A stretch of 25,673 nucleotides of DNA from a virus (Duplodnaviria > Caudoviricetes), in the IMG/VR virus record IMGVR_UViG_3300025653_004941, positions 1-25,673 of that record; one strand, given 5' to 3'. Shown here piece after piece: positions 1,575 through 18,054 of this stretch. Position numbers and translations under genes: made by a program. The number at the start of each line of letters is the position of its first letter. Within the stretch, counting starts at the first letter, position 1. The notes beneath the pieces are model-generated. The model ran no database searches, was not told the DNA's origin, and saw only the letters and a list, made by a program, of their open reading frames with translations.

Positions 1575-2101
1575 TGACTTATATTTTTGGTGACAGTTTT
1601 GCTGTCAACCGTGATGGTTGGGTAGGTATGTTAGGACGAGATGTTAGGATATTTTCACAAAACGGTGTTGGCGAATATAAAATTTACAAACAAGTGATTG
1701 AAAATTTAAGGTTTGATCAGGCCATAATCTGTCATACCTCTCCGTGGAGAGTCCATACGAGAATGCATCCTGTTCATAAAAATAATTTAATTAGGGAAAA
1801 TAATGATTTTCTGTTGAATGATGTTGAATATCATAGTAAAATAAACAAAGATATGAAACTTGTAAATGAATATCTAAAAAATTACTATGATCCTGAATAT
1901 CAACAAGGTGTATACGATCTGATTGTAGATAAGTTATTAGAAATAACAAACACAATACACATCACTTTCCATGAGCCAGAAGACACGAAACAAATTGCAC
2001 ACAATTTTAATGACATATACAAACAGCATCCAGGAGATGTAAATCACATGTCCGAAGATGGAAACATACTTACAGCAGAAAAAATTAAAAAAATTATATG
2101 A
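1571..2101 (+). CDS. SGNH/GDSL hydrolase-like protein
   Basis: IFGDSF block I, NGVG block II, DVNHMSEDGN (DxxH) block V; overlaps both neighbours. Confidence 0.55.
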   Translation: MMTYIFGDSFAVNRDGWVGMLGRDVRIFSQNGVGEYKIYKQVIENLRFDQAIICHTSPWRVHTRMHPVHKNNLIRENNDFLLNDVEYHSKINKDMKLVNEYLKNYYDPEYQQGVYDLIVDKLLEITNTIHITFHEPEDTKQIAHNFNDIYKQHPGDVNHMSEDGNILTAEKIKKII

Positions 2102-4761
2102 GTTACATAGACGCATTATTCAAAAAAGATGAAGACAAGATATACGTGGTAGAACGTGATGCCAAGAAAGGCAGAATATTTACGGAGTATGATGCAAGGT
2201 ACGTGTTCTACTACGAGGACGCAAGGGGCAAACACAGATCAATGACTGGTGCTCCATTACAGAGGGTGCAGTGTGCAACCAACAAAGAGTTCATTAAAGA
2301 ACAGAGGATAAGATCCAACAAACAACTGTACGAGAATGATATCAATCCTGTGTTCAGATGCCTGGAAGAGAACTATTTAGGCAAGGAGACCCCAAAACTA
2401 AATGTGATGTTTTTCGATATTGAAGTTGACTTCGATCCAGATCGAGGTTATTCAACAACAGATGATCCGTTCATGCCCATAACTGCCATAAGTTGTTACA
2501 TGAGCTGGACGGACCAACTGGTCACATTCGCCGTGCCACCAAAGACAATAAGCATGGCAGACGCAAAAGAACTCACAAAAAGGTTTGACAACACCATGTT
2601 GTTCGAGAAAGAGAAAGACATGTTGGATGCATTCCTGGAACTGGTGCAAGATGCAGACATACTGTCGGGTTGGAATTCAGAAGGATACGATATACCATAT
2701 ACAGTTGGCAGGATACAAAAAGTATTAAGTTCGGATGACACAAGAAGATTATGCTTCTGGGGTGAAAAACCTAGGAAGAGGGTGTTCGAAAAGTACGGTA
2801 GAGAACAGTTGAGTTTTGATCTCGTTGGACGTGTACACTTGGACTTGTTGGAACTATACAGGAAGTACACATACGAGGAAAGACACAGTTTCAGACTAGA
2901 TGCGATCGGAGAACACGAACTAGATGAGAAGAAGACAGTGTACGAGGGATCACTAGATAATTTGTACAAAAACGACTTCGGGTTGTTCATAGAATACAAT
3001 AGACAAGACACGGCACTACTGGCCAAACTTGAAAAGAAATTGAAGTTCATAGAACTTGCGAATGAGATAGCACACCAAAACACTGTGCTACTACAGACCA
3101 CAATGGGTGCTGTTGCAGTTACAGAACAAGCGATCGTAAATGAAACCCACAGGCGTGGCATGATCGTGCCAGGCAGGAAATACAAGAAAGACGGAGAAGA
3201 GAATCAACCAGCGGCAGGAGCCCATGTGGCGACACCACAAAAAGGAATACACGATTGGATTGGATCTGTTGATATCAACTCACTGTATCCTAGTGTTATT
3301 AGGGCGTTGAACATGGGTCCGGAAACAATCGTGGGCCAGATAAGGCCGGTGATAACATCGGCAGAGATCAACAGGGCTAAATCTCAGAAGAAATCATTTG
3401 CGGCCGCATGGGACAGCCAATTTGGATCGTGGGAGTACCAAGCGGTCATGAACAAAGAAAAAGGCACAGAGATCATAGTGGACTACGAAGACAAGACCAG
3501 TGTGCGTATGAGTGCGGCACAACTGTATGACATAATTTTTGATGGCAACAACAAATGGATGTTGAGTGCAAACGGCACAATATTCACATACGAATATGAA
3601 GCGGTCATACCAGGCTTACTAAAACGTTGGTATGAAGAAAGACAGGATATGCAGAGAAAAATGCGTGAGTGTGGAGACAACGAGATCGAAAGGGAATATT
3701 GGGACAAGAGACAGTTGGTCAAGAAGATTAATCTGAACAGTCTGTATGGTGCGATATTGAATCCAGGATGTAGATTCTTTGACATAAGGATTGGTCAGAG
3801 TGTGACCCTCACAGGCAGATGTATCACACAGCACATGGCAAGCAAAACCAATGAGATTATTTCAGGCAAGTATGATCACAAAGGAGAAAGCATCGTGTAC
3901 GGAGACACGGACTCGGTTTACTTTACAGCACACAAGACACTGCAGAAAGAGATCAACGAGGGATTGATTCCATGGACGAAAGATTCTGTTGTATCGTTGT
4001 ATGACAAGATTGCAGATGAGGTCAACGGATCGTTCAAGGCATTCATGACGAAAGGTTTTCACTGTCCAAGCACCAGAGGTGGAGTGATTGCGGCGGGCAG
4101 GGAACTTGTTGCATCCAAGGGTTTGTTCATAACAAAGAAAAGATATGCGGTGCTTTATTACGACAAGGAAGGAAAGCGTACAGACGTCGAAGGCAAAGAC
4201 GGCAAGATGAAAGCAATGGGACTAGATCTCAAACGTTCAGACACACCAGTGTTCGTGCAAGACTTTCTGAGTGAGATATTGTACATGGTACTACAAGGCA
4301 AGGATGAAAAAGATGTACTAGATAGGATCAGTGAATTCAGGGCAGAGTTCAAATCAAGGCCAGGTTGGGAGAAGGGATCTCCCAAGAGGGCAAACAACAT
4401 GACCAAATACACAGCGGCCGAAGAGAAGTCCGGTAGGGCAAACATGCCCGGACACGTGAGGGCCAGCATGAACTGGAATAGGTGCAGGGAGATGTACGGC
4501 GACAAGTACTCGATGCCAATAACGGATGGTGCCAAGGTGATCGTGTGTAAACTAAAACAGAACCCATTGGGTTACACCAGTATCGCATACCCCGTTGATG
4601 AGATGCGTATACCAGAGTGGTTCAAGGAACTGCCGTTTGATGGTGATGCCATGGAGGCAACGATACTGGACCAGAAACTGGACAACCTCATAGGTGTGTT
4701 GGGTTGGGATATACAGTCAACAGAGACCACAAACACATTCAACAAACTGTTCGAATTCTAA
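2098..4761 (+). CDS. polB: Family B DNA polymerase with 3'-5' exonuclease (T4 gp43-like)
   Basis: ExoI FDIEVD, ExoII GWNSEGYDIPY, ExoIII YNRQD; polymerase motifs DINSLYPS, KINLNSLYG, YGDTDS, KKRY. Confidence 0.97.
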   Translation: MSYIDALFKKDEDKIYVVERDAKKGRIFTEYDARYVFYYEDARGKHRSMTGAPLQRVQCATNKEFIKEQRIRSNKQLYENDINPVFRCLEENYLGKETPKLNVMFFDIEVDFDPDRGYSTTDDPFMPITAISCYMSWTDQLVTFAVPPKTISMADAKELTKRFDNTMLFEKEKDMLDAFLELVQDADILSGWNSEGYDIPYTVGRIQKVLSSDDTRRLCFWGEKPRKRVFEKYGREQLSFDLVGRVHLDLLELYRKYTYEERHSFRLDAIGEHELDEKKTVYEGSLDNLYKNDFGLFIEYNRQDTALLAKLEKKLKFIELANEIAHQNTVLLQTTMGAVAVTEQAIVNETHRRGMIVPGRKYKKDGEENQPAAGAHVATPQKGIHDWIGSVDINSLYPSVIRALNMGPETIVGQIRPVITSAEINRAKSQKKSFAAAWDSQFGSWEYQAVMNKEKGTEIIVDYEDKTSVRMSAAQLYDIIFDGNNKWMLSANGTIFTYEYEAVIPGLLKRWYEERQDMQRKMRECGDNEIEREYWDKRQLVKKINLNSLYGAILNPGCRFFDIRIGQSVTLTGRCITQHMASKTNEIISGKYDHKGESIVYGDTDSVYFTAHKTLQKEINEGLIPWTKDSVVSLYDKIADEVNGSFKAFMTKGFHCPSTRGGVIAAGRELVASKGLFITKKRYAVLYYDKEGKRTDVEGKDGKMKAMGLDLKRSDTPVFVQDFLSEILYMVLQGKDEKDVLDRISEFRAEFKSRPGWEKGSPKRANNMTKYTAAEEKSGRANMPGHVRASMNWNRCREMYGDKYSMPITDGAKVIVCKLKQNPLGYTSIAYPVDEMRIPEWFKELPFDGDAMEATILDQKLDNLIGVLGWDIQSTETTNTFNKLFEF

Positions 4762-4764
4762 ATA
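4759..4764 (+). promoter_or_regulatory. Putative phage late-type promoter element (TAAATA)
   Basis: CTAAATA overlaps the pol stop codon, 5 nt before ATG 4770; resembles the T4 late TATAAATA box and recurs upstream of other genes. Confidence 0.4.
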
Positions 4765-4769
4765 CCGTT

Positions 4770-5567
4770 ATGTTAAGCATTGAAGAAATAAAATTATTGA
4801 TTGAAAAACTAGAAAAAGTCAAAAAAGAAGATTTACAGGAGTTGATAGACTCAAATTTACAAATTTTAAAAGACATAGAGCTGGCCGTCGACGCCAACAA
4901 CAAAGAGGTAATAGACAGATTGGACAAGACTCCCGAATGGTACAACAGAGACCGAGAACAAAAATTGAAAAAACCCATGGTGGATCCTATCACTGAAAGA
5001 CAGGTACAGAGTAAAATATTCCAGTTCGCAAGGACAAATCTCTACAACAGCCTTGAGATTGGACCAGGTAATGGCATGTTCTCCATGGACTTCAGGGCAT
5101 GGAGGTTGAATTACTTCCTAGACATTACCCATGCCGTTGAGAGACCAATACTGGAGAAGTTCAATCCTGCACATAGAAAATATCTAAAATTCTACAAGAC
5201 ACGCAACACCGAGTGTTCAAACATTCCACAGGGCAGTTGCAACTTTGTTTTCAGTTGGGACACATTTGTTTTCTTCACACAACAACACGTGCAACAGTAT
5301 TTGCACGACATCAAGAGGGTGCTGATCCCCGGTGGTTATTGCTTCATACAGTATGCAGATTGCCACTATGATGTTGAACTGGAACTGGCCAAGAGGGGAT
5401 ATTGGAACTACAACACCAAGACCGCCATGACACAGATGATCAAGGACGAGGGTTATGAGATTGTGGAGATGAATCAGTTCAGACCTGGCGCTAGTTACGC
5501 CATATTCAGAAAACCTGGTAAACAAAATCCAGTCGTGTACAAAGTTTCTGAAATAACACTAGACTAA
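4770..5567 (+). CDS. Class I SAM-dependent methyltransferase with N-terminal coiled coil
   Basis: Motif I LEIGPGNG, NFVFSWDTF, and LHDIKRVLIPGG. Start moved from 4704 to ATG 4770, after the pol stop. Confidence 0.8.
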   Translation: MLSIEEIKLLIEKLEKVKKEDLQELIDSNLQILKDIELAVDANNKEVIDRLDKTPEWYNRDREQKLKKPMVDPITERQVQSKIFQFARTNLYNSLEIGPGNGMFSMDFRAWRLNYFLDITHAVERPILEKFNPAHRKYLKFYKTRNTECSNIPQGSCNFVFSWDTFVFFTQQHVQQYLHDIKRVLIPGGYCFIQYADCHYDVELELAKRGYWNYNTKTAMTQMIKDEGYEIVEMNQFRPGASYAIFRKPGKQNPVVYKVSEITLD

Positions 5568-5588
5568 GATCTAAATATAGTATACACT
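5560..5588 (+). promoter_or_regulatory. sigma70-type promoter with CTAAATA in the spacer
   Basis: TAGACT (5560-5565), 17-nt spacer, TACACT (5583-5588); CTAAATA at 5571-5577. Confidence 0.5.
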
Positions 5589-5597
5589 ACAAACATT

Positions 5598-6335
5598 ATG
5601 ATAGACATCTTAAAAGACATCGTTAAACATACGCATGGACTGGGATTCTTGGATCTTGTCAAGATCACTGGGGACGATAAGGAAACTTCAATCGACTCAA
5701 TGGCCGAAGACAGATCTGTGATCCTACAAGGGTCTTTCCACAAGCCACAGGCAGAGATGTCTGGTACGTTTGGAATGCCTCAGATGGGCAAGTTAGACAT
5801 CCACCTGAAGTGTCCCGAGTACAAGGAGAAAGCAAACATAACTGTGTTGTCAGGTGAGAGAGCCGGGGCAACAGTTCCCACAGGAATCCATTTCGAGAAT
5901 GAAAAGGGTGACTTCAAGAACGACTACAGGTTCATGAATGCCGAGATCATCAACGAGAAACTTAAGACCGTCAAGTTCAAAGGTGTTAAGTGGGACGTTG
6001 AGATCGAACCAGGAATGGCAAGTGTGCAGAGATTCAACTTCCAGGCAACAGCAAACACAGAACACAACTCATTCGTTGTTAGGACCGAGGATGGAAACTT
6101 GATTTTCACTTTCGGTGACCAGGCATCGCATGGTGGTGAATTCGTGTTCGCAACTGACGTTAAGGGAACACTTAACAAAGGTTGGAGTTGGCCGGTAGGA
6201 CAGGTGCTACAAATACTTAAACTATCAGACTCGGCAAAGGTCACATTACACTTCTCTAACGAGGGTGCGATGCAGGTCTCCGTTGATTCGGGACTGGGCA
6301 AGTATCAATACATCATACCAGCACAGGCGCAATAA
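5598..6335 (+). CDS. Probable sliding clamp / polymerase processivity factor (gp45/PCNA-like)
   Basis: 245 aa with an alternating helix/beta pattern typical of clamps; C-terminal YQYIIPA strand; located near polB. Confidence 0.6.
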   Translation: MIDILKDIVKHTHGLGFLDLVKITGDDKETSIDSMAEDRSVILQGSFHKPQAEMSGTFGMPQMGKLDIHLKCPEYKEKANITVLSGERAGATVPTGIHFENEKGDFKNDYRFMNAEIINEKLKTVKFKGVKWDVEIEPGMASVQRFNFQATANTEHNSFVVRTEDGNLIFTFGDQASHGGEFVFATDVKGTLNKGWSWPVGQVLQILKLSDSAKVTLHFSNEGAMQVSVDSGLGKYQYIIPAQAQ

Positions 6336-7783
6336 TGACGACAGATAATAGTAAGCAGGAACACCTAGGGGAGTTGAGCAGAGACTTCGCGGTGTTCTTG
6401 CCTGCTATATCTAACTTCTACAACACGTTTATCAGCAAACAGAGAGTCACAGAAGGCAAACACATAGCCGAAGAGAGAATTCCAAAGACATTTGAAAATG
6501 GCGTGGAGTCATTGAACTTCATAAATCCAGACAAAGGTATGTTTACATACCCCACAGCACTTTACTCGGCAGGACATGCCTGCTTAAACATGGATCAAGT
6601 GAATGACCGGGATCACATGTTCGTCAACAGGGATAGAAAGTTCAGCACGATAGTGGGCGATTCAGGTGGATATCAGATAGGAAAAGGTGTCATTAAATTT
6701 GATTGGAAAGATTTTGAGGGTAACAAGGCAAACAAAGTGAGATCAGACATACTCAACTGGTTGGAACTAACAAGCGACTGGGCAATGACACTGGACGTGC
6801 CAACATGGGCGGCGGATGACCTTAACAGTCCAAAGACTGGATTGACCAGTTTCCAGGACACATTGGACGGTACCATATACAACAACAAGTTCTTCCAAAA
6901 GAACAGGTTAGGACAAACAAAATTATTGAATGTTCTACAAGGTGATGACTGGAACACAGCACAGATATGGTATGATGCTGTAAAAGATTTCGAATTCGAA
7001 GGATGGGCAATGGGTGGTATTAACATGTGTGACATGGAAGTGATGCTGAAACGTCTGATCATAATGAGAGATGAGAAGAAACTTGACGGCAAGGACTGGA
7101 TGCACGTACTTGGAACTTCGCAGATGGATTGGGGTTGTTATCTCACACAGGTTCAAAGGCAGGTTAGGAAACATATCAATCCAAACTTCACAATCAGTTT
7201 TGACAGTGCATCAGCATTCCTATCGACTGCAAATGGACTTGTTTACACACACAACTCGTTCTCTCCAGACAGGTGGTCATTCGTAATGGATAAAGCACCA
7301 GACGATAAAGCGTTGAAAGGATCCGAAATTCAATTTCCATTTGATAGTGGTGTTGGACGTAGACTGAAGATGAAAGATGTCTGTTGGTATGGTGAGAATG
7401 ACCTAAATAAAAACGGAAAGGTTGGAGCAACAAGTTGGGACAGTTTCAGTTATGTGCTGATGATGGCACACAACGTATACAACCAGATCAGAGCGATACA
7501 GATCGCAAATGATCTAAACGACATAGAATCTATGAAATACCGACCTGAGGTCAAACACTGGCGTAAAACAAAGGCAAGTGACAAGACGGATGAACCAAGC
7601 ATATATGTTCCAAGGAACATACTGTATTTCAACACGTTTGTTGAAGAAGTGTTTACAAGTGAGAAACCAATGGACGTGATCGCAGGTGCATCAAGTTATC
7701 TAGCAGACATCAGGGGCAACAGATGGGCCAGGGCAACAGGTGGTGGCAAAGGCACAAACAATTTCAGTTCTTTATTTGAATAG
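6335..7783 (+). CDS. dpdA: TGT-fold guanine transglycosylase, DpdA-like (probable DNA 7-deazaguanine insertase)
   Basis: TGT motifs in order: GDSGGYQ, MTLDVP, NVLQG, GWAMGG, MHVLG, ISFDSAS, late AHN; clustered with folE and queE. Confidence 0.75.
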   Translation: MTTDNSKQEHLGELSRDFAVFLPAISNFYNTFISKQRVTEGKHIAEERIPKTFENGVESLNFINPDKGMFTYPTALYSAGHACLNMDQVNDRDHMFVNRDRKFSTIVGDSGGYQIGKGVIKFDWKDFEGNKANKVRSDILNWLELTSDWAMTLDVPTWAADDLNSPKTGLTSFQDTLDGTIYNNKFFQKNRLGQTKLLNVLQGDDWNTAQIWYDAVKDFEFEGWAMGGINMCDMEVMLKRLIIMRDEKKLDGKDWMHVLGTSQMDWGCYLTQVQRQVRKHINPNFTISFDSASAFLSTANGLVYTHNSFSPDRWSFVMDKAPDDKALKGSEIQFPFDSGVGRRLKMKDVCWYGENDLNKNGKVGATSWDSFSYVLMMAHNVYNQIRAIQIANDLNDIESMKYRPEVKHWRKTKASDKTDEPSIYVPRNILYFNTFVEEVFTSEKPMDVIAGASSYLADIRGNRWARATGGGKGTNNFSSLFE

Positions 7784-8018: not shown

Positions 8019-8570
8019 ATGGACAGAGATTATAAAACGGGCAAGAGTGAAACTGTAGGTGTTTTTTCAGGATTAGAAGTGGAACATACCCCGGCACTTG
8101 GTAAACAAACACTTTTCTTGGCAAGGAACGATCTTACGTTTGATGACATCAAAGAACTTGCACAATCAGTGAATGCGGAAGCAATCTACTATGGAGCAAA
8201 CAGATCTTATATGCACAATCATGGCATGCAACTTTCACAAATGAAGAGATTGATAGAAGATGGTTACTATGTCACTGTCGATTACGACTACAGCATACAC
8301 AAGGAAGTCAAAGAAAAATTCAAGATGTTGTGGCAAAACGAAAAGTTTATCCCTTTCTGTTCAATAATATTTCCAAATTCCGAGGACGATGACCAACTTT
8401 GTATAAAGGTCGATGACGTTGACTTCAACAAGACCAACCCAGGTGTTTGGACCATGAGCATGGATCACTTCAAACAAACTTCAGGTTTCACTTCATGGAA
8501 GGAATACAAACAAGACGAACCAATACAGGAGAACAAATGGACACTGAGCACCAACACGATCAAGCACTAA
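8019..8570 (+). CDS. Hypothetical protein, possibly a degenerate QueE-like partial barrel without the Fe-S motif
   Basis: Clear ORF with its own promoter; VFSGLEVEHTPALGKQTLFL and LIEDGYYVTVD echo QueE segments; no CxxxCxxC. Confidence 0.55.
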   Translation: MDRDYKTGKSETVGVFSGLEVEHTPALGKQTLFLARNDLTFDDIKELAQSVNAEAIYYGANRSYMHNHGMQLSQMKRLIEDGYYVTVDYDYSIHKEVKEKFKMLWQNEKFIPFCSIIFPNSEDDDQLCIKVDDVDFNKTNPGVWTMSMDHFKQTSGFTSWKEYKQDEPIQENKWTLSTNTIKH

Positions 8571-8977
8571 AAGAACAGGCAAATAAAGGCAGTAAGATGA
8601 TATGGGTAACATTCCGTAAGGAAGGCATCCACAAGTATCCCGCGGCACTGGACGATCCAAAACTGGCGACGGGTGATGAGTATGATGTCAGTTTCCTGGG
8701 ACACCCACACAGACACATATTCCATTTCAAGGTTGCTATAGAAGTGTTCCACGATGACAGAGACATAGAATTCATACAGTTCAAGAGATGGATGGAGAAC
8801 ATGTACGCGGACGGCACGATGAAACTGGATTACAAGAGCTGTGAGATGATATCCGATGATCTATATGTGGCGATCGCAAAGAGATATCCAGGCAGGAAGA
8901 TCGAGATAGACGTGAGCGAGGATGGCGAGAATGGAAGCCACGCAGTTTACGAAAAACCAGTGATGGGTGGAATATAA
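8537..8977 (+). CDS. dpdL: QueD/PTPS-like T-fold paralog with LxxxHRHxF (DpdL-like, putative CDG decarboxylase)
   Basis: EGIH, LGHPHRHIF (8696-8722), SCE and VSED match the QueD layout but lack CxxxHGH. Start at ATG 8537 after AGGAG (8527-8531). Confidence 0.65.
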   Translation: MDTEHQHDQALKEQANKGSKMIWVTFRKEGIHKYPAALDDPKLATGDEYDVSFLGHPHRHIFHFKVAIEVFHDDRDIEFIQFKRWMENMYADGTMKLDYKSCEMISDDLYVAIAKRYPGRKIEIDVSEDGENGSHAVYEKPVMGGI

Positions 8978-9303
8978 TGAAAGAAGTACAGATCAAAGAA
9001 AAACGAGCGACCACGAGGATGGGACACCTGCCCATAGAGGGTGGTGGACTTAATGCGGGTTACGACACTGTTGACGCAGTGGCCAACATCTGCACCACGG
9101 CGGGCAACCTCGGAATGAAGTACGGCAAGGACTTCATATGGTCACACACAGGATTCAGTGATGATGATGCAATGGACGACACGATAACACTGTTAGTCAA
9201 GGACGACAAGTACGAGTCTTTCCTGCATCTGGCATTACAGAATACACACAAGATAAAACACACAAACGACGGTACAATCAAACTAATCAAGGAGAGAAGA
9301 TAA
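8977..9303 (+). CDS. Hypothetical protein
   Basis: 108 aa, TAATG-coupled on both sides; no recognisable motif. Confidence 0.7.
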
Positions 9304-9725
9304 TGGACCTAAAAGAAAGTAAAACAGCAGAAAACCTTAAAGACGCTTTCGCGGGAGAAAGCCAAGCAAACAGAAGATACCTGTACTTCGCACAGAAGGC
9401 CGACATAGAAGGAGCACCAGACGTTGCGGCGGTGTTCAGAAGCACAGCGGAAGGTGAAACAGGACACGCACACGGACACCTGGAGTACCTAGAAGAAGTT
9501 GGAGATCCAGCAACAGGTGAAAAGATGGGTGAAACAGAAGACAACCTTAAATCTGCCATCGCAGGCGAGACGCACGAGTACACAGACATGTACCCGGGCA
9601 TGGCTAGAACTGCCAGAGAAGAAGGCTTCGAGGAGATCGCTGACTGGTTCGAGACACTAGCCAAGGCCGAGAAGTCACACGCGGGTAAATTCCAGAGAAC
9701 GCTAGATGCGTACAAAGGAGCATAA
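9303..9725 (+). CDS. rbr: Rubrerythrin (short form, no rubredoxin domain)
   Basis: [21 protein letters not shown] and EKSH di-iron ligands. Confidence 0.93.
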
Positions 9726-10255
9726 TGAGAGTACCATACACTAACTTTAAAACAAGAACAGGCGACGATACTGCAATTGGCGGTTGCGGATTCATAGGCG
9801 GTGAATGGAAAGATTTAGACACAGCAGAAATTTTCGATAACAAGAAGGTCGTTGTGTTTGCACTACCCGGAGCATTCACACCAACTTGTAGTTCACAACA
9901 ACTACCAGGATACGAAGAAATGTATGATGAGTTCAAGGCACAAGGCATAGACGAAGTATATTGCTTGTCAGTAAATGATGCATTTGTAATGAACGCATGG
10001 TTCAAGAATCAGGACATTAAAAAAGTCAAACCACTTGGTGATGGCGAAGGCGTTTTCACACAAGGAGCAGGGTTCCTTGTAAGCAAACCAGCACAGGGGT
10101 TTGGCATGAGATCTTGGAGATACTCAATGCTAGTTGACAATGGCGAGATAATCAAACAGTTTGTTGAAGAAGGACAAAACAACTCAAGTGATGACAATGA
10201 TCCGTTTGAAGTGTCAGACGCAAAAACAATGCTTGATTTTGTAAAAAGTAGATAA
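9725..10255 (+). CDS. Peroxiredoxin, Prx5-type
   Basis: [10 protein letters not shown] active site, [15 protein letters not shown]. Confidence 0.93.
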
Positions 10256-10575
10256 TGTATAAACCACTGCCAGACGGATTAACTATAAAAGATTCTGAAT
10301 TGCAAGGATTAGGATTATTTGCTACGCAAGGTTTCGATGCTGATGTGGTATTAGGAATAGTACACATCAAGAATAAAAATTTTCCACATGGAGCAATCAG
10401 AACGGCCTTGGGTGCATTTTACAACCATTCAGACAACCCCAACTGTAAGAATGTTGCAGGTTTTTGGCATCAATTGCCTGTGAAGTACCTAATTACAACT
10501 AAACCCATTAAAGAAGGAGAAGAACTAACAGCGGCGTACACTTTGTACAAAGATTTTAATGACAAGTGGGAATAG
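10255..10575 (+). CDS. Minimal SET-domain protein (lysine methyltransferase fold)
   Basis: SELQGLGLFAT, FYNHSDNPN, IKEGEELTAAY. Confidence 0.85.
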   Translation: MYKPLPDGLTIKDSELQGLGLFATQGFDADVVLGIVHIKNKNFPHGAIRTALGAFYNHSDNPNCKNVAGFWHQLPVKYLITTKPIKEGEELTAAYTLYKDFNDKWE

Positions 10576-10593: not shown

Positions 10594-11763
10594 ATGAAAA
10601 TATTTTACATGGGCCTAGAGCCATACGAAGGCAGATACACATTACAGTTGCAGGACTGGACTGAACGTGCATACAAGAAAAGAGGAATAGATTACGTTGT
10701 GGTACCAGGTACGACAATAGACGACACAAAAGCAATCAGTGTAGGACAGGTACTTGACGCACACGGAAGATCATACTTTGGTATGAGCCAGATGATGAAT
10801 CTTGTACAGATGATGCGTAATGGTGAGGTAACGAAGAACGACATCATATTCTTTGAAGACATGTTCCAGCCAGGCATGGAATCATTGCCTTACATATTGA
10901 ATCAAGTAGAAGCGAAACACAGACCAACGATATACCTGAGATGTCTTGCACAGGCCATAGACCCAGATGACTTCGTGCATGTATGGGGCATGAGCAAGTG
11001 GATGAGCATGTATGAACAGATGTGCAACGAAATTCCCAATGTCAACATACTTGCAACTAACGAAGAGATGGTGGCACACATGAGGATAGCAAATTGGTCA
11101 GCACCAATATACAACATATCAGGATTGAGCTTTGGCAAGGAAGAAGTACAGAGTAGAGTACCAGACAGGAAGCCTTTCATAGAAAGGAAACAGAGAGTGA
11201 TTTTTGGAGCGAGATGGGATCAAGAGAAACAGCCACAGTTCTACATGGAACTGGCCGCTAAATTCAAGGAGACACATCCGGATGTTGAATTCGCGATATG
11301 TCAAGGTGGACCTCTGAGATCCAACAACGACTACTACGTGAAAGAAGCAAAATATCTTGAGAAGCAAGGCATATTGACAATACATGAGAACTTGAAGAAG
11401 AACGAGTACTACGAACTACTCGCAGACTCGAGGGTGATGTTCAACTGTGCTTTACAGGACTGGGTGTCAAACACAGTGAGTGAAGCAGACGCAATGGGTT
11501 GCAACACCCTGTTTCCGGCATACAGATCATTCCCGGAGACGTTCGCAAATGACCACACGAGGATGTATGTTCCATGGTCGCAACAAGACGCAATGGAAAA
11601 ACTAGAAGTATTATTAAGCAAACCATCCCCTAGTATAGGCAAGATTTCTGACTGGACCGACGGTACCATAGACAGGATGATTGACATTATGACAGGCAAG
11701 GGAGAACAATGGAGAAGAGATGGAAGACACTACAGGACACCAGTTTCAGAAGCCAAGTATTAA
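10594..11763 (+). CDS. GT-B fold (GT4-like) glycosyltransferase
   Basis: VIFGARWDQEKQP, EYYELLADSRV, and QDWVSNTVSEA (a variant of the ExxGxxxxEA motif). Confidence 0.75.
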   Translation: MKIFYMGLEPYEGRYTLQLQDWTERAYKKRGIDYVVVPGTTIDDTKAISVGQVLDAHGRSYFGMSQMMNLVQMMRNGEVTKNDIIFFEDMFQPGMESLPYILNQVEAKHRPTIYLRCLAQAIDPDDFVHVWGMSKWMSMYEQMCNEIPNVNILATNEEMVAHMRIANWSAPIYNISGLSFGKEEVQSRVPDRKPFIERKQRVIFGARWDQEKQPQFYMELAAKFKETHPDVEFAICQGGPLRSNNDYYVKEAKYLEKQGILTIHENLKKNEYYELLADSRVMFNCALQDWVSNTVSEADAMGCNTLFPAYRSFPETFANDHTRMYVPWSQQDAMEKLEVLLSKPSPSIGKISDWTDGTIDRMIDIMTGKGEQWRRDGRHYRTPVSEAKY

Positions 11764-12751
11764 AGGCGTAAGTAAAGCAGTGCTAGTCACGGGCGGTGCC
11801 GGTTATGTTGGCTCACACACGTGTAAACTGCTTGCCATTAATGGATTCACACCAGTCACGGTAGATAGGCACTTCAGAGAAGGTCTGAAGTCATTTGGAC
11901 CAAACTACAATTTAAACCTCCCACAGGAGATGGACAGGATTGACGAGATCGTCAAAAGGTACAACATTACCAGTTGCATACATTTCGCGGGTAGCACCAG
12001 TGTACCTGAGAGTGTTGCCAATCCTTCATTGTATTACAAGAACAATTTGATCATGACCATATCATTACTGGACAAACTGATCGAGTGTGGGGTCAAAACT
12101 TTCGTTTACAGTTCCAGTGCGGCCACTTACGGTGATCCAGGAATGCAGTTGGCCATGGAGTCAGACGTTGCCAATCCAATCAGTGCATACGGTGGTAGCA
12201 AACTGATGATAGAGATGGTGTGTAAGGATTACCTGAGGGCATATGGATTGTCCAGTGTGGGTTTGAGATATTTCAATGCCGCTGGTGCAGATCCAGAAGG
12301 CGAAGTTGGAGAGCTACGAGAGAAAGAGACACACATCATACCACTGGCCATAACGGCCGCCAAGCAAGGCAAAACATTCAAGATATTTGGTGACAAGTAT
12401 CCAACAGATGACGGAACATGTGTAAGGGATTACGTGCATGTGATGGATTTGGCAGACGCACACATAAAAGCATTGAATCACGCTTCAAAGAATCCAGTGG
12501 CGGAGGTGTTCAACTTGGGTTCAGGAGAACCTTCTTCCAACAAGCAGTTGATAGAAGCAGTGCAGAAACACGCAGGTGAGATGAAGGTGGAGATGCATGA
12601 CAACAGACCTGGAGATCCAGCATATCTAGTGGCGGACACCAGCAAGGTGAAGGAAATTTTAGAGTGGGAGCCCACACAGAGCAGTCTTGACAACGTGGTG
12701 GCAACTGCTGTACAATGGTATAACAAGACGCACAAAAAGGATATACAATAA
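11720..12751 (+). CDS. galE: UDP-glucose 4-epimerase
   Basis: VTGGAGYVGSH, HFAG, SSSAATYG, YGGSK, LRYFNAAG, DGTCVRDYVHV. Confidence 0.93.
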   Translation: MEDTTGHQFQKPSIKGVSKAVLVTGGAGYVGSHTCKLLAINGFTPVTVDRHFREGLKSFGPNYNLNLPQEMDRIDEIVKRYNITSCIHFAGSTSVPESVANPSLYYKNNLIMTISLLDKLIECGVKTFVYSSSAATYGDPGMQLAMESDVANPISAYGGSKLMIEMVCKDYLRAYGLSSVGLRYFNAAGADPEGEVGELREKETHIIPLAITAAKQGKTFKIFGDKYPTDDGTCVRDYVHVMDLADAHIKALNHASKNPVAEVFNLGSGEPSSNKQLIEAVQKHAGEMKVEMHDNRPGDPAYLVADTSKVKEILEWEPTQSSLDNVVATAVQWYNKTHKKDIQ

Positions 12752-13464
12752 TGAGTGAAGACATTTTAAAAGACAGTTGGGTACCAGAAGGCCCTGTTAG
12801 TAAAAAGATCAAAGACAGGATAAAGAAAGCAGGCAAGAGATTCCATTCCAATGACAACATCTCTGAATTCATAGAAGAAGGAGAGATGGATCTGCTACAG
12901 GCAGAGGTACAGGAGAAACTGCAGGGTGTGTTAGACAGTCTTGTGATCGACACAGAAAACGATCACAACACACAGGAGACTGCGAAGCGTGTGGCCAAGA
13001 TGTACATCAGAGAAACTTTTGGTGGTAGATTCAAGCCAGCACCGAGGGTCACAAGTTTTCCCAACATGGGGTACAAGAGCATGTACACCAGTGGACCAAT
13101 ATCGATCAGGTCAACCTGTGCCCACCACTTCCAGAACATTGTGGGTAGAGCATGGGTAGGTATCATTCCAAATGGTGAGGTGATAGGATTGAGTAAATTC
13201 AACAGGATAGTACATCACATAGTGGAGAGACCCCAGATACAGGAAGAAATGACAACACAGATTGCCGAAGAATTGAAGAAATACGCAAAGACAGAAAATC
13301 TTGCAGTGGTAGTAAAAGCAGAACACCATTGTATGACACACAGAGGTGTGAGAGAACATGAGTCGGACATGACAACTGCAATCATGTTGGGTGCTTTCAA
13401 AGAAGATCCTGCTACAAGGGATGAATTCTACAAAATCTGTATGAGCATGAAGGGTCATGACTAA
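12751..13464 (+). CDS. folE: GTP cyclohydrolase I
   Basis: ETAKRVAKMY, STCAHH, GLSKFNR, RPQIQE, AEHHCMTHRG. Confidence 0.95.
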   Translation: MSEDILKDSWVPEGPVSKKIKDRIKKAGKRFHSNDNISEFIEEGEMDLLQAEVQEKLQGVLDSLVIDTENDHNTQETAKRVAKMYIRETFGGRFKPAPRVTSFPNMGYKSMYTSGPISIRSTCAHHFQNIVGRAWVGIIPNGEVIGLSKFNRIVHHIVERPQIQEEMTTQIAEELKKYAKTENLAVVVKAEHHCMTHRGVREHESDMTTAIMLGAFKEDPATRDEFYKICMSMKGHD

Positions 13465-13762
13465 GAAGACTAAAGAACAAATTAAAAAACAACAAGCAAA
13501 CATGCAATCTGACAACATGGAAATGGCCGGTTGGAGTGAAGGACTAACAACAGGTGGCGTTGTAGAGACAGCGACAGTGGATTTTGATTCACCGGATACT
13601 GGCTTCTCATACAGTTATGGAGATCTTGGCGACATGGGACAGTTGGATCTGTTTGACGAGATGGACTTGAGGGACAAGTACCCTGCATTGAACCAGGCAT
13701 GGGAACACTACCAGAGTGTGTTAGAAGTTTGTAAAACAAAGGAAAAAGAAGATGAGAATTAA
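13457..13762 (+). CDS. Acidic hypothetical protein with a QLDLF motif
   Basis: 101 aa; acidic, probably disordered middle; C-terminal helix KYPALNQAWEHY; overlaps both neighbours. Confidence 0.65.
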   Translation: MTKKTKEQIKKQQANMQSDNMEMAGWSEGLTTGGVVETATVDFDSPDTGFSYSYGDLGDMGQLDLFDEMDLRDKYPALNQAWEHYQSVLEVCKTKEKEDEN

Positions 13763-14801
13763 TACGGAACCTAAACTCAATTTCGAGGACGTGTTGCTAC
13801 AGCCAAAACGTTCAACACTGTCTAGCAGGCGAGATGTTGACATGACTCGTAAGTTCACGTTCCGCAATTCAGGTAAGGTCATGGATTTCCTTCCCATATT
13901 CGCAAGTAACATGGATGGTGTTGGCACATTCTCAATGGCCAAGGAAATGCAGAAGCACAAGATGATGACCGTTATAACAAAGACCACAACACCAGAACAA
14001 TGGAAAGAGGCCGCAGGCACAGGATTGAGAATGCAGTCAGTGTCAGTGTGTACGGGAACCAATGTTATGTGGGATCCGGAAGCACCTGATTGGGCGACCA
14101 TGAATAAAGTTTTAGAAATGTTCCCAGATGTCAAGATGATCACTGTTGATGTTGCAAACGCATATCATCAGAACATGGTGGACTTCATTAAAAAAGTAAG
14201 AGACGAATATCCAGACAAAGTCATCATAGCAGGAAACGTGGTCACACCTGAGATGACAGAAGAATTGATTATAAATGGTGCTGACGTGGTCAAGATAGGT
14301 ATTGGTCCAGGTTCTGTATGCACCACAAGAACAATGACTGGCGTTGGTGTACCACAGTTCTCGGCGATAGTTGACTGTTCAGATGCCGCGAACGGTGTTG
14401 GCGGACACATAATGGCAGACGGTGGTTGTGTGTATCCAGGAGACATAGCAAAAGCATTTGGTGGAGGAGCCCACATGGTCATGATAGGTGGTATGTTGGC
14501 AGGACACGACGAGTCAGAACAGCCAGTTGTTGATGGCAAGATAGAATTCTATGGCATGAGCTCAGACAGGGCTCGTGAGAAACACGGCAAACGCAAGGAC
14601 GGATACAGAGGCAACGAGGGTAGATTGATATCTTTGCCTCATCGTGGACCGGTTGGACCAACCTTGGAAGACATACTGGGTGGAGTCAGGAGTGCCTGCA
14701 CATACATAGGTGCGAGAAGACTCAAAGACATGGCCAAGTGTGCAAGTTTCGTCACAACCAACAACGTGATCAACAGGGTCTATGAGCGATACACCAAATA
14801 A
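13752..14801 (+). CDS. guaC: GMP reductase
   Basis: DVLLQPKRSTLSSR, ASNMDGVG, VDVANAY, KIGIGPGSVCTTR, ADGGC, FYGMSS; no CBS domains. Confidence 0.93.
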   Translation: MRINTEPKLNFEDVLLQPKRSTLSSRRDVDMTRKFTFRNSGKVMDFLPIFASNMDGVGTFSMAKEMQKHKMMTVITKTTTPEQWKEAAGTGLRMQSVSVCTGTNVMWDPEAPDWATMNKVLEMFPDVKMITVDVANAYHQNMVDFIKKVRDEYPDKVIIAGNVVTPEMTEELIINGADVVKIGIGPGSVCTTRTMTGVGVPQFSAIVDCSDAANGVGGHIMADGGCVYPGDIAKAFGGGAHMVMIGGMLAGHDESEQPVVDGKIEFYGMSSDRAREKHGKRKDGYRGNEGRLISLPHRGPVGPTLEDILGGVRSACTYIGARRLKDMAKCASFVTTNNVINRVYERYTK

Positions 14802-15114
14802 CATAGAGCCAATCAAGGAGAAACTGGACGACAAGATCAAGAAGTTGAATTCTTCAAGGGTGATCAAGAAAGTGACACCCAAGGGAGACCTGTCTTGGTA
14901 CGTGAAATGGGTTTCGGTGTTCTTTATATTAGTAGCGACAGCGGCCAGGAGTGTGGGCACAATACCACACATCGACATGTGGTTTGGTCTAGTAGGCACA
15001 GTGGGTTGGGCATGGGTTGGATACCTATGGCACGACAGGGCACTGTTGTTCCTGAATGCAATACTGGTCACACTATTGATCATAGGATTAATGAATTATT
15101 ATTTTGGGATATGA
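14782..15114 (+). CDS. Small membrane protein (about 3 TM)
   Basis: WYVKW followed by hydrophobic helices and WHDRAL. Confidence 0.7.
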   Translation: MSDTPNNIEPIKEKLDDKIKKLNSSRVIKKVTPKGDLSWYVKWVSVFFILVATAARSVGTIPHIDMWFGLVGTVGWAWVGYLWHDRALLFLNAILVTLLIIGLMNYYFGI

Positions 15115-15575
15115 GCGAAGAAGTTAAGAAGAATTATTTCACCACAGGACAGATGCGTAACGCACTGATCCAGATCGAAGACAAGATGGTGCACAGCAAC
15201 TGGATGCCAAGCATCATACTGGGCATCAACAGGGGTGGTTGCATACCTGGTGTGTACCTGTCGCACAGACTCAAGACAGCTCATGAAGTACTTGACGTGA
15301 GACTTAGGGATCACACCGCCAAACCTGACCTGCGTGTTTTAGAAAAGGCATTCGCATTCCAGAAGAAGATATTGATCATAGACGACATCAACGATTCCGG
15401 GGCAACGTTCCAGTACATACTGGACAACTTCGGCAAACGTGAAGACAGGATAAGATTCGCCGCACTGATCAACAACAAACCCAGCCGGGTCAAAGTAGAT
15501 TACCACGGTTACGAGATAAACAAGGACGAAGTGCCTAGTTGGATCGTATTCCCATGGGAAGAGTGGGACAAGTAG
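15111..15575 (+). CDS. Type I purine phosphoribosyltransferase (xanthine-guanine PRT-like)
   Basis: LGINRGG, PRPP loop ILIIDDINDSGAT, WIVFPWE; start set at the ATGA overlap at 15111. Confidence 0.88.
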   Translation: MSEEVKKNYFTTGQMRNALIQIEDKMVHSNWMPSIILGINRGGCIPGVYLSHRLKTAHEVLDVRLRDHTAKPDLRVLEKAFAFQKKILIIDDINDSGATFQYILDNFGKREDRIRFAALINNKPSRVKVDYHGYEINKDEVPSWIVFPWEEWDK

Positions 15576-15650: not shown

Positions 15651-16259
15651 ATGTTCAAAAACGTAGACAAATCAATGCTGATGAAACTGGTGTTACTACA
15701 TGTTGTAGTGATCACAGTTTCAAATGCGTTAGTGGCCATTCCAGTTGAAATATTTGGAATTAAATTAACGTGGGCGGCATTCACATTCCCATTAGTTGTT
15801 ATAGCAACTGACTTGACTGTAAGACTTTTGGGCAAACACATAGCCAGAGCCACAATCGCGGCGGCATATCCATTAGCAATAATTGGATCCATCGCAGTAG
15901 TGTTGGCGGAAGGCGCACCACAATCGGTTGCATTAAGGATTGGTTTCGCAAGTGCCACTGCTTACGCGATCGGCACTTTGCTTGACGTGTATGTATTCCA
16001 GTACATCAGGGAATCAAAGACGTACGGCAAGAACTGGTGGATGGCTCCAGCGGTATCAACAATCGCGGCCAACATAATCGACACTTACACATTCTTTGCA
16101 GTTGCATTTAACAACAGCGCCGACGAGTACATGGCGGCGAACTGGGTTGAGATCGCGGGATCGCAAGTGGTGTTGAAAATCATAGTGGGATTGGTTGTGT
16201 TCTTACCAGCATACGGATTATTGCTGAACAGACTACAGAAGACCTACAAACTCAAATAA
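15651..16259 (+). CDS. yhhQ: Queuosine-precursor (preQ0/preQ1) transporter, VUT family
   Basis: SNALV, TWAAFTFP, ATDLTVRLLG, LDVYVF, IDTYTFFAVAF; about 6 TM. Confidence 0.9.
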   Translation: MFKNVDKSMLMKLVLLHVVVITVSNALVAIPVEIFGIKLTWAAFTFPLVVIATDLTVRLLGKHIARATIAAAYPLAIIGSIAVVLAEGAPQSVALRIGFASATAYAIGTLLDVYVFQYIRESKTYGKNWWMAPAVSTIAANIIDTYTFFAVAFNNSADEYMAANWVEIAGSQVVLKIIVGLVVFLPAYGLLLNRLQKTYKLK

Positions 16260-16738: not shown

Positions 16739-17164
16739 GTGAACATATACACAATATACGCTGATCACAAAGAAAACATCTCGGCTCTCAATTTTGTTAG
16801 AAAGATGAGTTTATTCCTGGACGCCCTTGTGCTACACAAAAAAATGGTGTGTTACAGGATCACCAGGATGAAACTGGGATTCAGATCCATGGACTTACCA
16901 GAATTCAGGATCGATATGGAGTTCGAATCAATGCAACAACTCGACGACGCCATGGAAATTACCATGTCAGATAAGGGTGTTGACAAGACACACGTTGGAT
17001 TCAATCAATACGTGGACAAGGACACAATACAGCATTTCCTTTACCGTGATTATCCAGATGATCTAAATAAACCAAAGTTGACTGAAAAACAAAATCCATA
17101 TACAATAGACGAAGTAGTCAAGGCAACAAAAAATATAGATCCGGAAATATGGAACAAGGGTTAG
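16739..17164 (+). CDS. Hypothetical protein (possible alpha+beta barrel, DUF6614-like)
   Basis: GTG start right after the cupin stop; YRITRMKLG...EFRIDMEF...QLDDA. Confidence 0.6.
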   Translation: MNIYTIYADHKENISALNFVRKMSLFLDALVLHKKMVCYRITRMKLGFRSMDLPEFRIDMEFESMQQLDDAMEITMSDKGVDKTHVGFNQYVDKDTIQHFLYRDYPDDLNKPKLTEKQNPYTIDEVVKATKNIDPEIWNKG

Positions 17165-18054
17165 AAAAAAAATATTACTATTCAGAGATATTCCACAGCA
17201 TACAAGGCGAAGGACACTACACAGGTGTTCCGACCGCTTGGATAAGATTCTTCTTGTGCAACTTACAGTGTAGTGGATTTGGACAAATCGATCCAACTGA
17301 TCCAAGCACGTATGAATTGCCATTCGAAGACTTTGATGTTGATAGTGTGCAAAGGGTAGAAGACTTACCAGTGTGGGAGAAAGGTTGCGATTCCAGTTAC
17401 ACATGGGCAAAGAAGTTCAAGAAACTGATGGGATATGAAACACCCACTGTACTAGCAAACAAGATCGTAGATATATTAAAGACAGACACAAATGCACATG
17501 GATTGTTCTTACATCCAAACTCTAGGCAACATCAACACCTATGTTTCACTGGTGGGGAACCATTGATGATCACAGGACAGGCCGCGAGTATGGGCATATA
17601 CAGAGAACTCAAAAAACAAGCAAACCTGCCAAGTTCGATGACGTTTGAGACCAACGGCACACAGAAACTTACAGGTCCATTCAAACAGTGGGTCAAGGAC
17701 ATACCGGAGGAGATATTCTTCAGTGTGAGTCCAAAACTATTCACAGTATCAGGCGAGAAAACGGAAAAAGCAATCAAGCCAGGGAACGTGAAGGAATACG
17801 CAGAGTGTAGCAACAGAGGGCAACTGAAATTCGTTGTTGGATCAGAAAGACGACAGTGGGAAGAACTAGAGAACACCGTGAACAAATTCAGAGACGCCGG
17901 CGTGGATTGGCCAGTATGGATAATGCCCACTGGTGCAAGGGAAGAAGAGCAGACCGCAACCGCTGGTAAGGTGGCGGAGGAGGCATTCAAGAGAGGATAC
18001 AATGTTTCTGCAAGGGTTCACGTGTACCTTTTTGGTAATGCAATTGGCACATAA
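17149..18054 (+). CDS. queE: 7-carboxy-7-deazaguanine synthase (radical SAM)
   Basis: SEIFHSIQGEG, IRFFLCNLQC...GCDS, FTGGEP, FETNGT, SVSPK, LKFVV, IMP, RVH. Confidence 0.92.
   Translation: MEQGLEKKYYYSEIFHSIQGEGHYTGVPTAWIRFFLCNLQCSGFGQIDPTDPSTYELPFEDFDVDSVQRVEDLPVWEKGCDSSYTWAKKFKKLMGYETPTVLANKIVDILKTDTNAHGLFLHPNSRQHQHLCFTGGEPLMITGQAASMGIYRELKKQANLPSSMTFETNGTQKLTGPFKQWVKDIPEEIFFSVSPKLFTVSGEKTEKAIKPGNVKEYAECSNRGQLKFVVGSERRQWEELENTVNKFRDAGVDWPVWIMPTGAREEEQTATAGKVAEEAFKRGYNVSARVHVYLFGNAIGT

Follow-up and report, generated by a model that had tools for sequence, protein, structure and literature searches.

The DNA analysed here (below, the window) is the whole virus record IMGVR_UViG_3300025653_004941, 25.7 kb (25,673 nucleotides) of an uncultured giant phage, in which the genes of a family B DNA polymerase (polB), a methyltransferase, a predicted sliding clamp and a predicted guanine transglycosylase of the DpdA type follow one another on the same strand (Table 1). 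The subject of this analysis is a short hydrophobic peptide at which both the polymerase and the transglycosylase end, and by which the latter may dock on the clamp. For the clamp and transglycosylase genes, the closest named relatives are found in the Pseudomonas jumbo phages PA5oct/Paride, the Sinorhizobium phage Phosso and the Vibrio phage 2.275.O, and the records of uncultured relatives reach 353 kb, with an estimated completeness of 99%.

An earlier note on this DNA, made from its letters alone, claimed that the polymerase and the 482-aa transglycosylase share their C-terminus. This holds: polB ends in TNTFNKLFEF and the enzyme in TNNFSSLFE, and 6 of the 9 positions carry the same residue (T, N, F, L, F and E). 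The flexible linker described in the same place is also present, reading R-A-T-G-G-G-K-G, with residues 464-482 disordered in the AlphaFold2 (AF2) model (predicted local distance difference test, pLDDT, below 50). The consensus TNxFxxLFE needs correction, as N, F, L and F are kept in homologs whereas the leading T is variable, being K in many close relatives and Q, T, A or D in distant ones. A profile was trained on the polymerase tails of relatives (40 distinct ones), among them tails closely akin to that of the window but no transglycosylase. Over the 8,028 positions of the 39 window proteins, it scored polB at 29.9 and the transglycosylase tail at 22.4, the next best site reaching 1.5. The same two tails are again the two top sites in the relatives G001 and G002 (61,821 and 53,538 positions), and as a background, only 5 rows of open reading frames (ORFs), two of them one and the same ORF, scored at least 12 when the other ORFs of the loci were scanned in six frames (1,007,465 positions). 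At the DNA level, the two tails are identical at 17 of 27 nucleotides. The transglycosylase tail occurs in 31 distinct DNA versions, differing by synonymous changes and TCN/AGY serine switches, all of which encode NNFSSLF; the tail is therefore selected as protein. Its origin as a DNA duplication of the polymerase end is ruled out by the limited nucleotide identity and by these synonymous variants.

Conservation of the tail was followed in 63 non-redundant homologs, 14 close and 49 distant (<70% identity); Burkholderia phage BCSR5, whose dpdA is cut by the locus end, was excluded from every count. A profile score of at least 12 was reached by 46 of the 63, that is by all 14 close homologs and by 32 distant ones, and 7 more scored 5-12. 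Among the distant homologs, the linker glycines G470 and G471 are each kept in 45/49, and the motif residues N, F, L and F in 40/49, 33/49, 45/49 and 47/49, respectively, with the commonest residue at the positions between them reaching only 35-49%. The N-x-F-x-x-L-F core persists in homologs of 50-60% identity, mostly at an internal position with an acidic tail after it, and only the window's clade has it at the very end. There is also a second motif, D-x-x-L-x-x-L, which ends 47/49 distant homologs after about 35 acidic residues (alignment columns 575-620, loci L092-L162); it has no polymerase counterpart and has been lost in the window's clade (0/14). A wider sample was taken as 150 representatives, 39 shorter ones of which were dropped to leave 111 of at least 400 aa and 30-51% identity. 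Here, a looser pattern, h-x-x-[LFMI]-F within the last 60 residues, was found in 50/111 representatives versus 41/528 background phage proteins.

As a check, the earlier note suggested looking for joint conservation of the two tails. Between lineages this is the case, since the motifs switch together, but no finer covariation accompanies it within the jumbo family (see below). In Vibrio 2.275.O the polymerase carries NNTDLFDW and DpdA NNNDLFGW, and in Paride the polymerase carries HFDSLFGW and the enzyme SFNSLFDV. Moreover, the DpdA2-type enzymes of T4-like phages copy the motif of their own polymerase in 4/6 cases (polymerase/DpdA2: ACP17 SLDDLFE/TLDELFE, BUCT-ZZ01 TLDDFFS/SLDSFFD, X1 SLESLFG/SLEELFG and Moby SLEDLFGW/SLDDLFG). 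Over 10 phages, own polymerase/enzyme pairs scored a mean of 21.0 versus 14.2 for cross pairs (permutation p 0.0005, a value that overstates independence because kin phages share motifs), and in 7/10 the best match to the polymerase's last eight residues within the whole enzyme is the tail.

The gene at 5598-6335, previously noted as a probable clamp, gave no Pfam, PADLOC or PDB sequence match and one unnamed PHROG only, and its identification comes from its predicted fold. The AF2 model (pLDDT 92, monomer) has a two-domain clamp subunit fold that spans the whole chain and resembles PCNA from end to end (Foldseek E 5.9e-12, TM 0.71; VIA-align Z 18.2, root-mean-square deviation 3.9, 229 aligned), which supports a PCNA-type clamp; some homologs carry a PCNA or sliding clamp annotation. 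A gene for an RFC-type clamp loader, lying outside the window, was recognized in 4/5 relatives (phrog_168, E at most 1e-78), the fifth being 39% complete. The gap between the clamp and enzyme genes is at most 30 nt in 14/14 close and 17/48 distant loci, and at most 700 nt in 59/62 loci; in Phosso the two genes are about 170 kb apart. The TAATG overlap reported earlier does exist, with the clamp gene TAA and the next ATG having one base in common at position 6335, but it is weak evidence, as 8/36 window junctions are 1-nt overlaps. Being common in the window and poorly conserved across loci, it was ruled out as evidence of coupling.

The assignment of the downstream gene to the TGT/DpdA type is likewise upheld by its model. 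No family was obtained for this protein from Pfam, PHROGs or PADLOC, and PDB searched by sequence gave only chance matches (E 0.4-1). Its AF2 model (pLDDT 89.8) retrieved TGT structures in all of the top 50 Foldseek PDB matches (best E 6.3e-9, TM 0.41/0.51), which predicts a TGT barrel. Three aspartates, D109 (within GDSGG), D154 and D290, are invariant in the 63 homologs as well as in Paride, Phosso and 2.275.O, and align with the same motifs of the nt-1 DpdA2; from TGT enzymology, we take them to be the catalytic and base-binding residues (the DSGG Asp, a strand-end Asp and the nucleophile Asp). The family is large, with 6,121 clusters at 90% identity among the 8,000 candidates scored, and 944 clusters at 50% identity with E at most 0.001.

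The PA5oct protein QCG76197.1, 40% identical to the 482-aa protein over 98%, appears under DpdA3 in Data S1 of Cui 2023 (PMC10516641). Nonetheless, profile-profile comparison favored six DpdA2-type proteins (probability 93%, E 2.8e-7, 184 columns) over five short DpdA3-type ones (probability 15%, E 0.0017, 70 columns), and in a viral fold library nt-1 (E 2.5e-9) came ahead of phiST (E 4.3e-4). Profile-to-profile comparison was needed here: pairwise hhalign of the family alignment against single phiST DpdA3 or ACP17 DpdA2 was not significant, tblastn with the phiST DpdA3 did not return PA5oct, and tblastn between the window family and the DpdA2 group gave nothing at 1e-5. A scan with the Paride protein matched no viral contig. 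The window family is thus likely, judging from these comparisons, a separate long subfamily, sister to DpdA2 and nearer to it than to DpdA3, and it appears to be mis-filed under the latter. As to individual members, the DpdA of Vibrio 2.275.O (AUS03049.1, L003:8815-10605), a phage entered without DpdA in the table of Hutinet 2019, adjoins QueF, QueC and FolE. The Phosso DpdA (L002:6968-11169) ends in IVEGLF, a weak version of the motif, and its gene, immediately followed by primase and DnaB helicase genes, has these as neighbors in place of the clamp gene. Among the DpdA3-type proteins, that of RHph_I1_18 (L166:6571-7839) is fused at its C-terminus to a DUF3310-annotated domain and encoded three genes ahead of the sliding clamp gene.

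The genes downstream of the transglycosylase point to its probable product. The signature LGHPHRHIF of the predicted DpdL fits the LxxxHRHxF pattern of Cui 2023 (PMC10516641), whose Data S1 lists the PA5oct homolog as DpdL. QueD, outside the window fragment, is present in 3/5 relatives, and QueC was found in 0/5, including the 99% complete one, where a control search found QueC in 13/14 cells. FolE, QueD, QueE and DpdL without QueC is the gene set tied to 7-deazaguanine by Cui 2023 (PMC10516641), and PA5oct is recorded as having a deazaguanine system by Iyer 2021. With DpdL, FolE and QueE in the window and QueC in none of the five relatives, 7-deazaguanine in phage DNA is therefore the likely product.

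Since the enzyme carries the same N-x-F-x-x-L-F as the polymerase and a predicted clamp gene lies just upstream, it likely docks on the clamp. We propose, with a probability of about two in three, that a DpdA-type enzyme with a polymerase-like tail docks on the predicted PCNA-type clamp and exchanges guanine for 7-deazaguanine on newly replicated phage DNA. Binding of the clamp by the tail appears quite probable, and DNA is very probably the substrate. Motif identity, conservation and gene order are observed here, and the clamp and the TGT barrel are predicted by fold. By analogy with gp43 of T4/RB69 (PMC2988020), the polB tail would bind the clamp, and the common motif would insert its F, L and F into the ligand pocket of the clamp, as do the gp43 tails and the PCNA-interacting peptide (PIP) boxes. 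The enzyme would either compete with the polymerase for the clamp or follow it. Docking would hold it on DNA clamped by the phage loader, where guanine would be exchanged after synthesis for the 7-deazaguanine supplied by FolE, QueD, QueE and DpdL in the absence of QueC, and the linked glycosyltransferase may elaborate the product further. The tail is a real feature and likely a functional one, which would make this enzyme a DpdA whose clamp-docking peptide matches that of the polymerase. Most likely, the tether helps to localise the enzyme and so speeds the exchange on phage DNA, and is not needed for catalysis; we are less sure that it strongly affects how much DNA is modified or how far host DNA is spared. 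The interpretation given in the earlier note is partly supported; the processivity and phage/host discrimination that it derives from docking are possible consequences.

Several results weigh against this proposal. In the relative G005 (99% complete), the motif of the enzyme is degenerate, its score of 6.9 lying below hits that score at least 7, and nine unrelated positions of the same genome score 7-13. Conservation of the tail holds for the close homologs and most distant ones but fades further out: the motif is weak or absent (score below 5) in 10/49 distant homologs, only 6/111 representatives of the wider sample reach a score of 12, and many shorter distant family members end without the tail. 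It is also weak or absent in the Phosso enzyme and, among the six DpdA2-type enzymes, doubtful in pf16 and lacking in nt-1, and a polymerase-like tail was found in 0/5 short DpdA3-type proteins (phiST, CP220, RHph_I1_18, Ahp1 and D479). The pairing itself is imperfect, as the own pair gives the highest score of its row in no more than 5/10 named phages, and no covariation of polymerase and DpdA beyond the consensus was detected within the jumbo family (47 pairs, p 0.11). Moreover, the clamp model is nearer to PCNA than to T4 gp45, albeit by a modest gap (VIA-align Z 18.2 versus 15.8). The experimental record adds three points. Tail-less phiST and CP220 replace all guanines, the tail-less nt-1 DpdA2 modifies DNA in E. 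coli on its own, to a level near 0.1% (926-1,607 per million nucleotides), both according to Cui 2023 (PMC10516641), and PMC13216743 does not regard clamp binding as what chiefly determines modification by the T4 alpha-glucosyltransferase (alpha-GT).

These last points are also what would be expected if the tail bound the clamp with little effect on the modified amount, serving timing, location or a minor boost. As described in PMC13216743, the T4 alpha-GT binds gp45 and yet its expression level sets its share; the full replacement and the activity reached by tail-less enzymes (PMC10516641), together with decay of the motif in a fifth of distant homologs, fit the same picture. Purifying selection on seven residues, by which 31 DNA variants give one peptide, and the switching of the motif with that of the polymerase in several lineages both imply a fitness value, and we consider so slight a role unlikely, if worth serious attention. 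Perhaps the tail serves as an amphipathic anchor to something else (another copy of the enzyme, its own barrel, or a partner such as DpdL or the glycosyltransferase), and resembles the polymerase tail through convergence of short hydrophobic peptides. F-x-x-L-F is in fact a generic one-turn helix, a few unrelated ORFs score 12-17 on the polymerase-tail profile, and the conserved acidic D-x-x-L-x-x-L of distant homologs would suit such an anchor. Nonetheless, AF2 does not pack the tail onto the barrel monomer, and the match takes in the non-hydrophobic N and varies with the polymerase motif between lineages, so that we regard this as distinctly improbable.

The chemistry could also run differently, with deazaguanine entering as a nucleotide before replication (from a phosphoribosyltransferase, PRTase, through kinases to polB), and the TGT-fold protein cleaving residual guanine or exchanging in reverse. 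The presence of a PRTase and a GMP-reductase-family enzyme in the cluster would be accounted for, and a clamp tether would also fit a proofreading role. This route is very improbable given that all three TGT-like Asp motifs are invariant, that the nt-1 DpdA2, nearest tested subfamily, alone inserts preQ0 into plasmid DNA, and that insertion after replication is argued by Cui 2023 (both PMC10516641); the PRTase could just as well salvage the guanine that is set free. Finally, the enzyme might act as a tRNA transglycosylase on phage or host tRNAs. Bacterial tRNA TGTs hold a zinc-binding Cys/His cluster and need a supply of preQ1, whereas the 482-aa protein has only four, scattered cysteines (83, 232, 268 and 350) and is therefore without such a cluster. 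Its best solved-structure matches are tRNA TGTs, and all four GUN anticodons are represented among the tRNAs of the relative G005, yet DpdL diverts the pathway to 7-deazaguanine, QueC is missing from all five relatives including the 99% complete one, no tRNA genes were found in the G001 and G002 stretches (both incomplete), and a polymerase-type tail would be useless on tRNA. A role on tRNA is thus hardly credible.

Table 1. Features of the window in order of position
Feature	Position	Strand	Basis
Family B DNA polymerase polB, 887 aa, T4-type	2098..4761	+	Pfam DNA_pol_B E 7.5e-37; phrog_262 E 9.6e-196
polB C-terminal peptide TNTFNKLFEF, presumed clamp-binding motif	4729..4758	+	Sequence; N-x-F-x-x-L-F kept in relatives
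S-adenosylmethionine (SAM)-dependent methyltransferase between polymerase and clamp genes	4770..5567	+	Pfam Methyltransf_23/11
Predicted sliding clamp, PCNA-type two-domain subunit, 245 aa	5598..6335	+	AF2 model, fold matches
Predicted DpdA-type guanine transglycosylase, 482 aa, TGT barrel and helical C-domain	6335..7783	+	Foldseek, invariant Asp, PA5oct homolog
Gly-rich linker, residues 464-473	7724..7753	+	pLDDT <50 for 464-482; GG pair conserved
DpdA tail TNNFSSLFE, polymerase-like candidate clamp-binding motif	7754..7780	+	Profile score 22.4 vs next 1.5; conservation
DpdL, predicted 7-carboxy-7-deazaguanine (CDG) decarboxylase	8537..8977	+	Signature LGHPHRHIF 8696-8722; 32% identity to phiST gp040 over 116 columns
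GT-B glycosyltransferase	10594..11763	+	Pfam Glycos_transf_1
Nucleotide-sugar epimerase	11720..12751	+	Pfam Epimerase E 5.9e-50
FolE, GTP cyclohydrolase I	12751..13464	+	PF01227 E 7.7e-47
IMPDH/GMP reductase family enzyme	13752..14801	+	Pfam IMPDH E 1.4e-66
Phosphoribosyltransferase (guanine salvage or deazaguanine nucleotide synthesis)	15111..15575	+	Pfam Pribosyltran E 2.2e-12
YhhQ/Vut_1 transporter family (presumably for deazaguanine precursors)	15651..16259	+	Pfam Vut_1 E 6.2e-26
QueE radical SAM, CDG synthase	17149..18054	+	phrog_2076 E 8.9e-54

Other genes of the cluster allow some further observations. The glycosyltransferase and epimerase genes (10594-12751) lie inside the deazaguanine cluster, which raises the possibility of a glycosylated purine; in Phosso, too, the neighbor of DpdL is annotated as a glycosyltransferase. 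The GMP-reductase-family enzyme and the PRTase (13752-15575) could recycle guanine freed by the exchange or make the deazaguanine nucleotide, and the Vut_1 (YhhQ) family protein presumably transports deazaguanine precursors. Between DpdA and DpdL there is a 183-aa protein (8019-8570) with a weak SMI1/KNR4 match, below cut-off, and between DpdL and the glycosyltransferase sit a rubrerythrin, a peroxiredoxin and a SET-domain protein (9303-10575). The methyltransferase at 4770-5567 is not at that place in Paride or 2.275.O. About 50 tRNA calls were made by ARAGORN in G005 (L186-L205; overlaps may double-count), one of them with a CTA anticodon.

The tail profile also picked out a few proteins outside the polymerase and transglycosylase families. 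A 163-aa protein of G002 (L217:15652-16143) ends in QTNFNSLFS and scores 17.0, and may be a third protein that docks on the clamp; in its homolog from G005, the terminal pattern was not matched. A T5orf172-like ORF (L161:10218-10808), for which no homolog was found among the loci, and another ORF (L157:11512-12141) carry polymerase-like motifs near the C-terminus, scoring 16.2 and 14.8, respectively.

A clamp-docking tail would offer a concrete targeting mechanism by which DpdA could find phage DNA and spare host DNA, and it predicts that co-expression of the cognate clamp and loader rescues DpdA activity. DpdA modification levels range from <0.1% to 100% of guanines, and several DpdA failed upon expression in E. 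coli (Cui 2023, PMC10516641). More broadly, and tentatively, it may be that the long DpdA proteins, DpdA2 and its jumbo-phage sister subfamily, are replisome accessories whose docking peptide is retuned to the phage's own polymerase, with exchange taking place at the fork on phage-clamped DNA only. If this is true, self could be told from non-self without a sequence motif, and it would be accounted for that the ACP17 DpdA2, with a tail, is inactive in E. coli and the nt-1 DpdA2, without one, is active. Cui 2023 (PMC10516641) reports no product in E. coli from ACP17 DpdA2 with DpdL, and the same for tail-less phiST; as a hint of a tether, the ACP17 failure is confounded because tail-less phiST failed too. 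A clamp tail would leave the full replacement by tail-less short DpdA3 unaccounted for, and the tether as a cause of complete replacement by DpdA3 was rejected, none of the five short proteins having a polymerase-like tail. The idea is cheaply testable in the culturable phages Paride/PA5oct, ACP17 and Moby.

Clients of other clamps provide a comparison for the proposed tether. In eukaryotes, PCNA clients with a PIP box such as DNMT1 couple DNA methylation to replication through a short clamp-binding peptide, and the 1-4-7-8 spacing of the window motif (Q/T/D, F, L, F) presumably fits the PIP register. Unlike those clients, the window enzyme would perform base replacement in a phage, and its motif has F at position 4 and L at 7. 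Closer at hand are the T4/RB69 gp45 clients gp43, gp55 and gp33, described in PMC2988020, which likewise use a short hydrophobic/acidic motif on a flexible linker, common to the replicative polymerase; the T4 motifs are reported in the same source to be interchangeable and functional when internal. The carrier here differs from these in being a predicted base-exchange enzyme with the motif N-x-F-x-x-L-F and a clamp whose model ranks PCNA over gp45, and its docking is a prediction. The T4 alpha-GT co-purifies with gp45 (PMC13216743, confirming Sommer 2004 as cited there) and is, like the window enzyme, a post-replicative modifier of phage DNA associated with the phage clamp, an association that is predicted in our case. 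Unlike the window enzyme, alpha-GT transfers sugar to hydroxymethylcytosine, and the parts of PMC13216743 consulted describe no common motif. With phage DpdA (Cui 2023, PMC10516641), the window enzyme has in common the predicted TGT barrel, the catalytic Asp motifs and the co-encoded FolE, QueD, QueE and DpdL without QueC, and it is unlike short DpdA3 (a barrel of 258-290 aa) in that its family measures 480-600 aa and carries a polymerase-type tail. Among the literature matches listed, with subscription journals mostly outside, no paper linking DpdA to a clamp was found, and the word clamp is absent from the main text of Cui 2023; PMC13229309 deals with clamps of the ParB kind and has no bearing here. 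DpdA and clamp-bound phage DNA modifiers are both known; what would be new is their combination in one enzyme.

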